4,219 bases of DNA from a virus. Lineage: Duplodnaviria > Heunggongvirae > Uroviricota > Caudoviricetes. Both the position numbers and the translations under genes were made by a program. Positions 851-4,219 of the stretch are shown here, in pieces (within the stretch, counting starts at the first letter, position 1; every line of letters starts with the position of its first letter). The stretch lies in the IMG/VR virus record IMGVR_UViG_2693429700_000012, one strand, 5' to 3'. The notes under the pieces were generated by a model. The model saw only the letters and a program-made list of their open reading frames with translations, had not been told where the DNA came from and did no database searches.

Positions 851-1133
851 CCTACGCAAAGAAGCGCGCGGCAGAGAATGCCAGGTACGTATTTACGGCG
901 TATGCAATGGCAATCCTGAAACTACAGTTCTGGCACATTACCGGATGGCTGGAATTTGTGGAACGGGGATGAAGCCTGACGACCTGATCGGCGCATGGGC
1001 TTGTAGTGACTGCCACGCGGAGATCGACCGACGCACAAGGATTCTCGACAACAAAGACACCAGACTTTACCACCTCGAAGGCGTGATCAGGACGCAGGCG
1101 ATACTGCTGAAGGAGGGGAAGATTAAGTCATGA
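843..1133 (+). CDS. ybcO: YbcO-like protein (DUF1364 family, Cys/His-rich putative metal-binding nuclease) at the ninG position
   Basis: 96 aa, the same length as E. coli DLP12 YbcO. The N-terminus MANLRKEARGRECQVRIYGVCNGNPETTVLAH and the ACSDCHAEIDRRT segment match my recollection of YbcO. Conserved Cys/His positions are C13, C21, C39, C54, C57, H58. Its stop overlaps the rusA start (ATGA at 1130-1133). Confidence 0.8.
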   Translation: MANLRKEARGRECQVRIYGVCNGNPETTVLAHYRMAGICGTGMKPDDLIGAWACSDCHAEIDRRTRILDNKDTRLYHLEGVIRTQAILLKEGKIKS

Positions 1134-1492
1134 ACGAATATCAGTTTGTGCTTCCATACCCGCCGTCGGTGAATACCTACTGGCGAAGACGGGGAAGCCA
1201 ATACTACATCAGCGATAAAGGCCAGAAATACCGAAAAGACGTTCAGCAAATCATCCACCAACTCAAGTTAGATATTTTCACCAAATCACGACTCCGCATC
1301 AAAGTAATCGCAGACGTTCCAGACTCCCGCCGCCGCGACCTAGATAACATCCTGAAGGGTTTACTCGACTCCCTTATCCATGCCGGATTTGCGGAAGACG
1401 ACGAGCAATTCGATGACATTCGCGTAATTCGTGGTGTGAAAGTACCAGGCGGACGGCTTGGAATAAAAATCACCGAACTGGAGAACGCATGA
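1130..1492 (+). CDS. rusA: Holliday junction resolvase RusA
   Basis: 120 aa, the same length as E. coli RusA. Conserved blocks are LPYPPSVNTYW (cf. LPWPPSNNRYY), PDSRRRDLDN carrying the catalytic Asp pair, AGF..DD and GGRL..ITE. Synteny ybcO-rusA matches DLP12-type prophages. Confidence 0.85.
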   Translation: MNEYQFVLPYPPSVNTYWRRRGSQYYISDKGQKYRKDVQQIIHQLKLDIFTKSRLRIKVIADVPDSRRRDLDNILKGLLDSLIHAGFAEDDEQFDDIRVIRGVKVPGGRLGIKITELENA

Positions 1493-1677
1493 ACGCCACA
1501 ATTCAAACGATACCAGAGCTTCTTATCCAGACACGAGGCAATCAGACCGAAGTGGCGAGGATGCTTTCCTGCGCAAGAGGAACAGTGCTCAAGTACAACC
1601 GAGACAGCAAAGGCGAGCGTCATGTAATAGTTAACGGCGTCCTGATGGTCAAACAGGGCAAGAGGGGAAGACGATGA
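1489..1677 (+). CDS. ninH: NinH-like small DNA-binding protein
   Basis: 62 aa. The core TIPELLIQTRGNQTEVARMLSCARGTVLKY...HVIVNGVLMV matches remembered lambda NinH (TIPDMLVEAYGNQTEVARRLKCSRGTVRKY...HAIVNDVLMV). ATGA start/stop overlap with rusA at 1489-1492. Confidence 0.75.
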   Translation: MNATIQTIPELLIQTRGNQTEVARMLSCARGTVLKYNRDSKGERHVIVNGVLMVKQGKRGRR

Positions 1678-1763
1678 GACTCGAAAGCGTAGCTAAATTT
1701 CATTCGCCAAAAAGCCCGATGATGAGCGACTCACTACTGGCCACAGTTTATTGGTTTTCGTAA
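1674..1763 (+). pseudogene. 5' remnant of a lambda-type antiterminator Q gene (first ~20 codons conserved, then divergent and terminated)
   Basis: ATG 1674 overlaps the ninH stop (ATGA). Translation is MRLESVAKFHSPKSPMMSDS LLATVYWFS*. The first 20 residues equal the N-terminus of lambda Q as I recall it (MRLESVAKFHSPKSPMMSDSPRATA...). Similarity decays by about 1747 and the sequence then turns abruptly AT-rich. Confidence 0.55.
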
Positions 1764-1805
1764 CTGAGTCATTTTATTATTTTATTGCAACTTTTAATCT
1801 TTTAT

Positions 1806-1855
1806 AGTGCGAAATAAATGGAGCTGGCATTCATTTCGCACTTTATGTTTTTGTT
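1806..1855 (+). terminator. candidate rho-independent terminator for rightward nin transcription
   Basis: Inverted repeat AGTGCGAAATAAATG (1806-1820), loop GAGCTGG, CATTCATTTCGCACT (1828-1842): 14 of 15 bp pair. It is followed by the T-rich run TTATGTTTTTGTT. On the - strand the hairpin is followed by an A-rich run, so it is mainly a + strand terminator. Confidence 0.4.
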
Positions 1856-1888
1856 GGACTTATGTTATTTTGATTGAATTCAATTCAG

Positions 1889-2848
1889 TTAAAAAAAGAA
1901 GGTGATTGCTCCATTTATAAATGAATAGTCATCCCCTGTCTTGAATTCTGATGTTACTTTATTAAATGCTAGTGTGAAGGCTACAGGTGCATACCCAATT
2001 GTTGCGCCAACTTGATATTCATCAACAGTTTTGTTTAGCGATACTGTTGTTTGTTTCGTCTGTATTGTTTTTCCTTCGAGAGTATAGTTGCGATTGACAT
2101 CTCGTCTTTCCATACCTGCAAAAATCTTGTATTTGAATCCGCTTGTATCGGACATATGCATTAAACCACGGGGAGCCAGCAGACCAAAGCCATTATCCGA
2201 ATTGAAGGTTTTATCATTACCAATGGCAATGGTTGCGCCATATGCTACATATTGAAATAAGTTTCCAGTAACAGCAGAAACTTCAGGGTATAATCCAACA
2301 TTAGCACCTAAAATATCCATACTTGGTGTCATGGATAGCATCCCTTTTACAGTATAACCGTAGCGATTCTCTATTTGATCATCCCATGCATGATATTTTT
2401 CTGCCCCAATAATCTCATGAGCTTTATTTTGTACTTTCTGACCGCCTGCGTCGGGGCCAACAACACCTATGTCAGTACCTAATCGATAGCGAATCCAGTC
2501 ATTCGCAAGGGAGTTCCATTCAATACCAGTGTGAGTGTATGCACTAAAAGCTCTGTCTCCAGTTACAGCTGTGTTGTGTCTTTTATTACTGCCTGATGGA
2601 GAGTAAATATCTTGCGCAATATGGAGAGATAATTGGCTCGAGTCTGAGATATCGTGGCTATATCCCAGAAATAAGCCTTGTGAGTAATCATCTCTGTTTT
2701 CATGTTTATTGCCATAAATATCATTAAGTATTGGTTGAAACTTCCCTGCATCATCATTTGCTAATGATAATGCAAGGCTGTTCGCGATAGCTGAACACGT
2801 GGTAAATGACAGAGCAATAAAGACGCCAGCGATGACACTTTTTTTCAT
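1889..2848 (-). CDS. lpxR: outer-membrane lipid A 3'-O-deacylase LpxR family protein (prophage moron)
   Basis: 319 aa. N-terminal signal peptide MKKSVIAGVFIALSFTTCSAIA; C-terminus ends ...NGAITFFF, typical of a beta-barrel outer-membrane protein. With a 22-residue signal peptide the mature protein has N9, D10, S34 and H122 (precursor N31, D32, S56, H144), the positions I recall as the LpxR active site, and the mature length (~296-297 aa) agrees. Good SD AAGGAAG 8-9 nt upstream of the ATG. Lower GC than the flanking nin genes. Confidence 0.8.
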   Translation of the reverse strand: MKKSVIAGVFIALSFTTCSAIANSLALSLANDDAGKFQPILNDIYGNKHENRDDYSQGLFLGYSHDISDSSQLSLHIAQDIYSPSGSNKRHNTAVTGDRAFSAYTHTGIEWNSLANDWIRYRLGTDIGVVGPDAGGQKVQNKAHEIIGAEKYHAWDDQIENRYGYTVKGMLSMTPSMDILGANVGLYPEVSAVTGNLFQYVAYGATIAIGNDKTFNSDNGFGLLAPRGLMHMSDTSGFKYKIFAGMERRDVNRNYTLEGKTIQTKQTTVSLNKTVDEYQVGATIGYAPVAFTLAFNKVTSEFKTGDDYSFINGAITFFF

Positions 2849-2884
2849 ATGTTATTGTCTTCCTTTTTTTTGAATGGTGCGCGT

Positions 2885-2912
2885 ATTTTACATACATGAG
2901 TTTGTAATACAA
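2885..2912 (-). promoter_or_regulatory. candidate sigma70 promoter for lpxR (TTGTAT-16 nt-TAAAAT on - strand)
   Basis: On the - strand, TTGTAT (complement of 2907-2912), a 16-nt spacer, then TAAAAT (complement of 2885-2890), about 35 nt upstream of the lpxR ATG. Found by eye in an AT-rich region where such matches occur by chance. Confidence 0.2.
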
Positions 2913-3323
2913 GGTGCGTAATCAATATGATGTTTTATAATTGCGTGAGACAATTGATTTATTCGTTTTTTATTGCGGTTTTTATTATCTTTTAATGTAA
3001 CGGTGTTTTTATTAAGTGTGTTTGCGTGGTGTTTTATGTTTTTTATAATTTTTATTTTATTAAATTTAAAAGCATTAGTAATGGCTATTCTATATAGCAA
3101 TATAAGAACTGTTACAAAAAAAGGGGGGGCAATTACAGGTAGTTATGGATGATGAGTGAAACAGATATTGGAGAACCGGGGAATGAATGATGTCTGAGTC
3201 TTATATATCAGAACTCCTTCGCTGTCGCTGGGGGCTCCTGTGCTTATGTCGTTTCCCCGATTCGGTTTTGAACGATTACCGAATGTTGAAGAATTATGCC
3301 AAAATATAGAAAGGATTTACTGC

Positions 3324-4013
3324 ATGAATACCCAATATTTACAGTATGTTCGTGAGCAACTTATGGCAGCTACTGCTGACTTGAACGGAGCAACGAAAGG
3401 CCAGCTCGAAGCCTGGCAGGAGCATGCACAATTTGATACTGGTACATACAAACGAAAGAAGCCGCGCATTCTGGATGTGGTAACTGGCAAGATGATTACG
3501 CTGGATAATACGCCGACTTCCGGTAAGCAGTCGTACGCAAAAGGTTCATCCATTGCTTTGGTCAGCCCGGTTGAATTCTCAACCTCTTCATGGCGCCGCG
3601 CGGTTTTGTCTCTCGATGAACATCAGAAAGCATGGTTGCTTTGGTGTTACAGCGAAAGCGTTCGATGGGGGCATCAGGTCACCATAACGCAATGGGCATG
3701 GAGCGAGTTTAAAGATTTGTTAAGTAACAGAAAAATTGCAGGTAAGACACTGGATCGCCTGAAGACGTTAATCTGGCTGGCTGCACAGGATGTGAAGAGC
3801 GAACTTGCAGGGCGTGAGGCCTATGAATACCAGACACTGGCATCATTGGTGGGAGTGACAACAAAAAACTGGTCCGAGACATTTACTGAACGCTGGGTTG
3901 CAATGAAGCACATTTTTCTACAGCTTGATAGTGATGCTTTATTGCTTGTGACGAGAACACGTTCAAAACAAAAGGCAGCATTTTTACAGCAAAATATTGC
4001 AAAACTGGATTAA
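3324..4013 (+). CDS. putative late-gene antiterminator Q, non-lambda type (possibly phage 82/QuuQ-like); start may instead be 3240 or 3246
   Basis: Long ORF 3240-4013 in the track. I favour ATG 3324 (229 aa) because it has SD AAGGA 8 nt upstream and the 3240-3323 stretch is full of rare codons (CGA x2, ATA, AGG). The identification is by position: last gene of the nin/early-right operon, directly followed by a promoter and terminator pair, with a lambda-Q remnant upstream. The C-terminal region has an HTH-like segment (YQTLASLVGVTTKNWSE). I do not recall a matching sequence. Confidence 0.5.
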   Translation: MNTQYLQYVREQLMAATADLNGATKGQLEAWQEHAQFDTGTYKRKKPRILDVVTGKMITLDNTPTSGKQSYAKGSSIALVSPVEFSTSSWRRAVLSLDEHQKAWLLWCYSESVRWGHQVTITQWAWSEFKDLLSNRKIAGKTLDRLKTLIWLAAQDVKSELAGREAYEYQTLASLVGVTTKNWSETFTERWVAMKHIFLQLDSDALLLVTRTRSKQKAAFLQQNIAKLD

Positions 4014-4025
4014 AAGCCATATACT
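3997..4025 (+). promoter_or_regulatory. candidate late promoter (pR'-like): TTGCAA-17 nt-TATACT
   Basis: -35 TTGCAA (3997-4002), 17-nt spacer, -10 TATACT (4020-4025), overlapping the Q stop codon (4011-4013). Predicted start site near 4032. The first ~25 transcribed nt contain -10-like elements (TATGTT, TAAAAAAT), as expected for sigma-dependent pause sites at Q-dependent promoters. Confidence 0.4.
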
Positions 4026-4058
4026 TCATGCAAATTTGGTATGTTGTAAAAAATGTAT

Positions 4059-4085
4059 AAACCCGCTGCCGAGTGGGTTTTTTTT
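4059..4085 (+). terminator. candidate intrinsic terminator (tR'-like) about 30-50 nt downstream of the late promoter
   Basis: AAACCCGC (4059-4066), loop TGCCGA, GTGGGTTT (stem includes one G-U pair), followed by a run of 8 T (4078-4085). With the promoter above it would give a ~50-nt terminated transcript unless antiterminated. Confidence 0.45.
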
Positions 4086-4219
4086 ATGCCCTGAGTTGTA
4101 CTTGTACGGTAAACATGCTGGCTGCTATGTAATAGAGTTTTTTTAGCCTGTAACCTCTTGACGGCATTGAATTGCTTTTGTTATGAGTTGTAAGCCAATG
4201 TTATCATCTTGTATTGGGG

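Follow-up and report, generated by a model that had tools for sequence, protein, structure and literature searches.

The 29-codon open reading frame (ORF) that directly follows ninH in this DNA is very probably the first 61–78 nt of a lambda-type Q gene, a non-functional scar left by replacement of the late-control module. The window, by which we mean the whole stretch of 4,219 nt analyzed here, covers the region from the nin genes to Q in an E. coli lambdoid prophage. Over its full length it is 99.9% identical to NZ_CP148401.1, and from position 125 onward many other genomes are 100% identical to it. After the nin genes come the 29-codon ORF, lpxR in the opposite orientation, ylcG and a second, full-length Q (Table 1).

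The stump is already known at the level of annotation, and as a lambdoid mosaic joint that left part of a gene behind it is a textbook case. The GenBank record of phage 434 calls the ORF an "antiterminator-like protein" and notes that it is an N-terminal fragment of lambda Q, and PGAP annotates 1674–1745 as a pseudogene, an incomplete antitermination protein without its C-terminus. We found no paper that discusses the stump explicitly, only database annotation. What is added here are both breakpoints, the rusA stump inside the inserted block, the comparison with phage 2B8, the single-origin distribution and the two left contexts. Lambdoid mosaicism is a familiar picture, to which this adds no new concept, and its significance is modest; the scar does show by what route lpxR came to be fixed in the late-control region of a lambdoid lineage that includes phage 434.

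Table 1. Features of the window in order of position
Feature	Position	Strand	Remarks
ninX, 5'-truncated			first gene in window order
ninF, then a hypothetical gene, then a YbcO/DUF1364 gene			between ninX and rusA
rusA	1130–1492		directly before ninH in gene order
ninH	1489–1677	+	left neighbor of the stump; ORF list; PF06322, E 2e-24
29-codon ORF	1674–1763	+	made by the junction: MRLESVAKFHSPKSPMMSDS + LLATVYWFS
Lambda-type Q 5' stump, perfectly conserved part	1674–1734	+	codons 1–20 plus 1 nt; 61/61 nt identical to lambda and HK620 Q
Left breakpoint interval	1735–1751	+	ragged 12/17 nt match to Q codons 21–26
8-bp tandem duplication, ATTTTATT twice	1771–1786	none	missing from phage 434
Hairpin, 14–15 bp	1806–1842	+	U-rich tail at 1843–1856, on the + strand only; RNA folds
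lpxR, lipid A 3'-O-deacylase gene, AT-rich segment	1889–2848	−	PF09982, E 6.8e-40
AT-rich region upstream of lpxR	2849–3172	none	GC 0.23–0.40; most polymorphic part of the cassette
rusA 3' stump (…EPGNE, stop)	3173–3190	+	doubles as ylcG translation-initiation region; internal joint of the block
ylcG (orf45 of phage 82)	3190–3309	+	82–86% nt identity with phage 82-type ylcG
Full-length phage-82-type Q	3324–4013	+	PF06323, E 1.1e-91, 216/220 profile positions
Promoter-like TTGCAA-N17-TATACT and ~20 nt leader	3997–4045	+	promoter scan; conserved with 82-type phage PhiR47_2
Right breakpoint interval	4046–4060	none	PhiR47_2 similarity ends ~4045; 2B8 similarity starts ~4060
Intrinsic terminator after late promoter	4059–4088	+	terminator scan, fold, phage 434 annotation

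The Q stump and its match to lambda Q

The ninH gene, 98% identical to that of HK620, ends in an ATGA (1674–1677) in which its stop codon is overlapped by the ATG of the stump. Residues 1–20 of the ORF are identical to those of lambda Q (NP_040642.1; a lambda-type Q is also found in HK620, HK97, HK022 and, as gp23, in P22), and BLASTP aligns the two with 22/25 identities at E 3e-13. The likeness covers the first 61 nt, the ribosome-binding site and the ATGA overlap. A sequence-only reading of this DNA had proposed such an ORF, overlapping ninH, opening with the first 20 residues of lambda Q and stopping after 29 codons, and each of these points is borne out. The stump differs from lambda Q in that residues 21–207 are missing, it has no Pfam match (none at E <= 0.01) and no lambda-type pR'/qut follows it. 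Since everything after residue 20–24 of a 207-residue protein is missing, the stump would be unable to antiterminate.

The same reading had the ORF diverge after those 20 residues. Divergence is indeed what we see, but not as a clean cut, since a ragged zone of 17 nt intervenes before nucleotide similarity to lambda Q ceases past 1751. The match in this zone has a chance probability of about 1e-4 at fixed register, and its five differences from lambda Q are all GC-to-AT. Substitutions relative to lambda Q are thus very unevenly placed, 0/61 at 1674–1734 vs 5/17 at 1735–1751 (Fisher p = 2.9e-4). In about 100 phage records with an intact lambda-type Q, the match to the window stops at 1744–1746. 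The abrupt AT-richness reported from about 1748 was also recovered, GC falling from 0.48 (1651–1750) to 0.29 (1751–1850) across the junction.

A tblastn search of 50,697 phage records returned, as the best full-length Q matches to the ORF, alignments of 22/24–25. No full-length Q allele with the "LLATV" tail (through "...SDSLLATVYWFS...") was found in these records, nor any homologue of the last nine codons. Further pieces of lambda-type Q, pR' or qut are absent elsewhere in the window, by tblastn as well, and past nt 71 of Q nothing in the window resembles the Q-to-S interval of lambda or HK620. Taken as a functional lambda-type Q, then, the ORF is a product of 29 aa without a family match and without its cognate pR'/qut; taken as a gene remnant, it is a perfect 61-nt match at the native Q position after ninH or ninI, with the rest of the gene missing. 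A chance similarity, or an assembly chimera at the junction, deserves practically no credence in view of the 61/61 nt and the BLASTP score, and the same junction is present in 620 complete genomes, 53 viral contigs and the independently sequenced phage 434.

The replaced module and the inserted block

Q allele identity sets late-gene expression levels in lambdoid prophages. The sequence-only reading had taken the stump as the mark of a recombination that swapped the Q-qut-late promoter module and brought lpxR with it, and the comparison of two phages of the genus Alegriavirus, 434 and 2B8, upholds this, as do the co-travelling junctions described below. Phage 434 (OL657226.1) has the identical 29-aa ORF (CPT_434_64, UMO75328.1) and the identical junction to the lpxR flank, and it shares lpxR, ylcG, the 82-type Q and the post-Q region with the window at 99–100% identity. 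It differs from the window in having ninI, a serine/threonine phosphatase gene, and not ninH as left neighbor, and in being without the duplication copy at 1779–1786; it is also a complete viable phage, whereas the window belongs to an IS-disrupted prophage fragment.

Phage 2B8 (NC_049952.1) is about 97% identical to 434 on both flanks. The left flank, 96.7% identical, comprises ninF, ninG, ninI and the opening ~71 nt of Q; the right flank, 97.2% identical, starts at the post-Q terminator, extends over at least 1.9 kb of downstream sequence and takes in the membrane protein, TciB and esterase genes. Between these flanks, about 0.67 kb of 2B8 holds a complete lambda-type Q together with a lambda-like late promoter, whereas 434 and the window have a block of 2.3 kb that 2B8 lacks. 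Collinear flanks around a non-homologous middle, as seen in 434 vs 2B8, are the pattern of a mosaic module replacement. The comparison places the left breakpoint at 1735–1751 and the right one at about 4046–4060, at the post-Q terminator, and 2B8 similarity resumes at about 4060, inside the terminator hairpin. Alignment with relatives that carry an intact lambda-type Q had been suggested as a check; carried out with 2B8, lambda and HK620, it gives the left breakpoint just named. With its right end at about 4046–4060, the swap includes the 82-type promoter and leader, in line with the late-promoter module named in the sequence-only reading.

The Q of the block lies 1,561 bp beyond the stump, in agreement with the earlier remark that a different, full-length Q candidate sits some 1.5 kb downstream. 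It is 89% identical at the amino acid level to phage 82 Q (203/229) and has no similarity to lambda Q, and it is presumed to be the working late-gene regulator. The promoter-like element and leader that follow are presumed to be the pR'/qut of the swapped module, and their conservation with PhiR47_2 fits a Q travelling with its cognate promoter and qut. In the elements that carry this arrangement, late genes would be driven by a Q and promoter of the 82 type, not of the lambda type.

The order rusA 3' end, ylcG, Q and promoter is that of the phage 82/DLP12-type module (X92588.1; PhiR47_2), from which the window differs in that just the last ~6 rusA codons are left. Homology to phage 82 and PhiR47_2 begins within these codons, at 3173, and not at ylcG. 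The encoded rusA end is GEPGNE in the window vs TEMGNE in phage 82, each followed by the stop codon. In other ylcG-Q relatives in E. coli genomes, the match starts at 3173–3179, directly after an intact rusA. The rusA stump argues that lpxR was joined to the rusA-ylcG-Q82-type module in a separate illegitimate event. Because the AT-rich lpxR segment (~1752–3172) sits between the Q stump and the rusA stump, two illegitimate joints are preserved.

The LpxR product matches its Pfam family over the full length (profile positions 2–320 of 323). GC is 0.23–0.45 across 1751–3150 vs 0.44–0.58 in the nin genes. Promoter-like matches that could serve lpxR are no more numerous than expected by chance in a promoter scan, and the upstream region (2849–3172) has no homologue outside the cassette. 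More distant lpxR loci (71–73% aa identity) adjoin phoPQ on a Citrobacter chromosome and, in a viral contig, lie beyond tail-fiber genes and IS fragments; their flanks have no similarity to those of the cassette, and a donor of the lpxR segment was not found. LpxR is a lipid A 3'-O-deacylase. Pch and Ler switch on its gene along with the LEE, and a statistical association links the gene to LEE-positive strains, EHEC and EPEC (PMC6393859).

Phage morons (PMC3594210) are cargo units of lambdoid phages that are independent and differ in composition from the surrounding genes. Like them, lpxR is AT-rich and oppositely oriented, has its own upstream region and a hairpin, offers a host benefit and is under host virulence regulators. 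Could lpxR simply be a moron that landed in an intact lambda-type Q, the downstream Q being an unrelated resident and no module having been replaced? Composition, orientation and the separate flanks of lpxR agree with this, but where a moron has two intact adjacent genes as neighbors, lpxR has the Q 5' stump on one side and the rusA 3' stump on the other. The 3' part of a lambda-type Q, pR' or qut is missing to the right of lpxR and everywhere else in the window, which excludes a simple insertion into Q; moreover, the right side opens with the rusA stump and the 82-type module, and in 2B8 about 0.67 kb stands where 2.3 kb now stands. We regard plain moron insertion as extremely unlikely. The position of lpxR between two stumps implies that it came by, or together with, gene-truncating illegitimate joints.

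On the favored reading, illegitimate recombination inside Q codons 21–26 produced the stump, and the rest of Q, pR' and qut gave way to the 2.3-kb block extending from ~1735/1752 to ~4046/4060. The block has two parts: the AT-rich lpxR unit, in opposite orientation and with its own upstream region and downstream hairpin, and a phage-82/DLP12-type late-control fragment comprising the last ~6 rusA codons, ylcG, the 82-type Q, the promoter and the leader. Neither an lpxR flank without the stump nor a ylcG-Q of the same allele behind an intact rusA was found among 5,426 E. coli genomes, the phage collection and IMG/VR, and because such intermediates were not found, the order and number of the block-building events are only inferred.

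Phage 434B (OL657227.1), isolated in the laboratory, offers a witnessed replacement of a Q-late promoter module by another lambdoid element: DLP12 prophage DNA has taken the place of its Q, late promoter and lysis genes (PMC9119081), with the crossover at the ylcG end. Unlike the event recorded in the window, that one was a homologous exchange within ylcG which left no gene stump, and the Q stump and lpxR are still present in 434B.

How would such a locus work? Late genes would be under the 82-type Q at its own promoter, from which a short leader transcript would end at 4059–4088 unless Q modifies the polymerase. Rightward early transcription toward ylcG and Q would have to pass the hairpin with its U-rich tail (1806–1856) and then 960 nt of antisense lpxR, presumably by means of N-modified polymerase, as at the nin-region terminators of lambda. 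This hairpin is likely an intrinsic terminator against rightward phage transcription, to judge from the position of its U-rich tail. It folds with z = −3.7 on the − strand and z = −2.2 on the + strand, and on the − strand, where it lies 47 nt past the lpxR stop, the U-tract is missing. In a lysogen, the stem at 1806–1842 would keep unmodified rightward read-through out of lpxR. Phage 434, which has the same arrangement, forms plaques (PMC9119081), and a complete lytic cycle is therefore possible with it.

Distribution and the two left contexts

The junction has a single origin. The lpxR 3' flank alone (1752–1900), the flank joined to the stump (1640–1900) and the right junction (3060–3420) were each found in exactly 620 of 5,426 complete E. 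coli genomes, the left-junction and right-junction counts being taken at 80% or more of the query covered. Since these counts are equal, lpxR, ylcG and the junctions travel together. The cassette is always present as one chromosomal copy per genome, in 11% of the complete genomes. All 53 IMG/VR loci with the same lpxR allele have the identical junction, and these include one diverged lineage (L059) with identities of 96% in lpxR, 82% in the upstream region and 89% in Q. The ylcG-Q allele of the window occurs only next to lpxR; among its other relatives in E. coli, identity does not exceed 86%.

Two contexts are found to the left of this junction. The window and genomes of serotypes O111 and O26 have ninH with HK620-like flanks, and 434, O157:H7, O55:H7, O145 and O121 have the ninI phosphatase gene with lambda-like flanks. 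Both ninH and ninI are native neighbors of an intact lambda-type Q. Left of the junction, the sequence common to the window and 434 consists only of 1664–1760 and a 138-bp patch in ninF about 1 kb upstream. A change of the immediate left neighbor would need a crossover within about 1664–1751, because there is no other adjoining shared sequence. In at least one exchange with a phage whose lambda-type Q was intact, the ~70-nt stump probably acted as a homology patch. Such use would account both for the ninH and ninI contexts and for the contrast of 0/61 vs 5/17 substitutions. For the latter, microhomology at the original joint may be an alternative explanation, and selection on the first 61 nt could be another.

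It is tempting to go further and regard the stump as a scar now kept as useful DNA, that is, as a homology arm of ~70 nt that also serves as a translation coupling and terminating site for ninH or ninI. In that role it would let the lpxR-Q82 cassette enter any phage with a lambda-type Q by homologous recombination. The same junction does stand behind two native Q neighbors, the only sequence common to both next to the junction is 1664–1751 (the ninF patch ~1 kb upstream aside), and the undiverged 61 nt would fit a 5' part replaced time and again by crossovers. However, past use as homology is not the same as selection for such use, one exchange suffices to give two contexts, and any shared patch is a common site of exchange in lambdoid mosaics. 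We consider it unlikely that the stump is retained because it is useful as DNA in this way.

Coding status of the stump

Is the stump ORF a gene in its own right? An intact 29-codon ORF conserved among related prophages had been named beforehand as an observation that would speak against a remnant. Formally it was made: the ORF is intact in 55/55 loci, with the native ribosome-binding site and ATGA coupling in both contexts. It is not a sign of selection, however, because polymorphism in the ORF is at least as high as in the non-coding flank, and an intact ORF in relatives is uninformative when the whole cassette, non-coding DNA included, is 98–100% identical. Polymorphism density was compared in place of dN/dS, which was not used because just three variable sites are too few. 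Among 49 aligned cassettes, there are two segregating sites in the 90 bp of the stump ORF and 3.2 per 100 bp in the adjacent non-coding flank; lpxR and ylcG have 0.5 and 0.7 per 100 bp, respectively. The ORF is thus no less polymorphic than adjacent non-coding DNA and under no excess constraint. Three stump variants were seen, one of them non-synonymous (T24I).

A genuine small gene kept by selection, encoding a micropeptide possibly directed against the lambda-type Q of competing phages, would agree with the ORF being intact and translationally coupled in both contexts and with its undiverged first 61 nt. The uniform identity of the cassette and the polymorphism densities just given speak against it, as do the non-synonymous change among only three variants, the lack of any homologue of the last nine codons or any Pfam match, and the retention of just 20–24 of the 207 Q residues. 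We hold such a gene to be very improbable. Slightly less so, though still quite improbable, is that the stump is a selected element of the cassette in a broader sense, either through the 29-aa peptide (for example as a decoy of the Q N-terminus) or as a dedicated docking sequence of ~70 nt; if true, this would help to explain the presence of the cassette in 11% of complete E. coli genomes and in two nin modules. On the preferred reading of the stump as a scar, it is probably translated by coupling to ninH into a 29-aa peptide without a role, judging from the ATGA overlap, although the ORF, intact in every copy examined, may have a small-peptide function. The ORF is best labelled a pseudogene or a remnant rather than an antiterminator, and in surveys of prophage "Q type" the stump should not count as a lambda-type Q.

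Two RNA candidates at the junction were rejected. A stem-loop in Q codons 12–23 is labelled "terminator for PaQ" in some P22-like records, but a leftward paQ terminator inside the stump is not borne out, the stump having no RNA structure beyond chance on either strand (folding z 0 to 0.6). The PasD sRNA is linked to LpxR and Q within 10 kb in the Pas preprint, which places it directly upstream of the sialate esterase gene, beyond the window. Searched against Rfam at E <= 1, the whole window yielded nothing at 1674–1900 and only a sub-threshold STnc240-like match at 4020–4089. The candidate peptide product of the 29-codon ORF reads MRLESVAKFHSPKSPMMSDSLLATVYWFS.

Sequences flanking lpxR

Two features were found in the AT-rich flank between the stump, that is, the 29-codon 5' remnant of a lambda-type Q gene, and the stop codon of lpxR (see table). 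The first is a tandem duplication; the AT-rich flank as a whole varies by indels from one lineage to another. The second is a hairpin whose U-rich tail is confined to the phage-rightward (+) strand; folding of the lpxR strand gave a perfect stem (z = -3.7) lacking a U-tract. This orientation looks suited to stopping transcription that enters lpxR antisense, rather than to termination of lpxR itself.

Upstream of lpxR lies an extremely AT-rich region, with GC as low as 0.23, in which polymorphism is far higher than elsewhere in the cassette (lpxR, ylcG and the phage-82-type Q), at 8.3 segregating sites per 100 bp in addition to indels. The Ler/Pch-responsive promoter is expected to lie in this region. 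A chromosomal homologue of lpxR, 73% identical, is present in Citrobacter sp. ANG330, where it is located about 600 bp upstream of phoP-phoQ. PhoP-PhoQ is the two-component system governing other lipid A modifications.

Coordinates of the features described (window positions unless another locus is named)
Feature	Position	Remarks
Right end of IS3-family IS1203/IS629 element	1-124	window begins inside the IS
8-bp tandem duplication (ATTTTATT x2)	1771-1786	absent from phage 434
Hairpin, 14-15 bp stem	1806-1856	between stump and lpxR stop; RNA fold
Region upstream of lpxR	2849-3172	
End of ylcG	~3304-3323	second mosaic joint
Presumed short late-promoter leader and terminator	4020-4089	
Lambda-type Q of phage 2B8	L065 1433-2056	
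Region with the lpxR homologue, Citrobacter sp. ANG330	L007 3495-7201	

The Q region and the presumed late-promoter leader

A second mosaic joint was observed at the end of ylcG. The 434 isolate 434B, in which the Q, late promoter and lysis region is replaced by DLP12 DNA, and two viral contigs (L036 and L039) share all of the sequence through ylcG and then continue into a different Q region; the record of phage 434, which has the same cassette, notes the end of ylcG as the 434B crossover point.

The presumed leader together with the terminator gave a weak, sub-threshold Rfam match to the sRNA family STnc240 (28 bits, gathering score 55; E 0.32). According to a 2026 preprint, PasD1 and PasD2, two sRNAs bound by Hfq, map no farther than 10 kb from LpxR and Q in over 98% of cases, and their position is given as just upstream of the sialate esterase gene. 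That gene is past the end of the window.

For phage 2B8, the unswapped relative with a lambda-type Q after ninI, the RefSeq start of Q is an internal Met at codon 16. The frame stays intact through the 15 codons upstream, which overlap the stop codon of ninI in the same way as in lambda, and the RefSeq start is therefore likely to be a mis-call.

The left end of the window

The window opens within an IS element, the transposase of which ends at position 82 in the single genome that matches the full window length; in most genomes the match starts at position 125. Since ninX starts 15 bp upstream of position 125 in a relative lacking the IS, the element has removed approximately the first 5 codons of ninX. 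On the far side of the IS, upstream, the source strain has terminase genes in inverted orientation and a fragment of Rha. The nin-Q block is thus separated from its early promoter, and the prophage carrying the window is probably defective.
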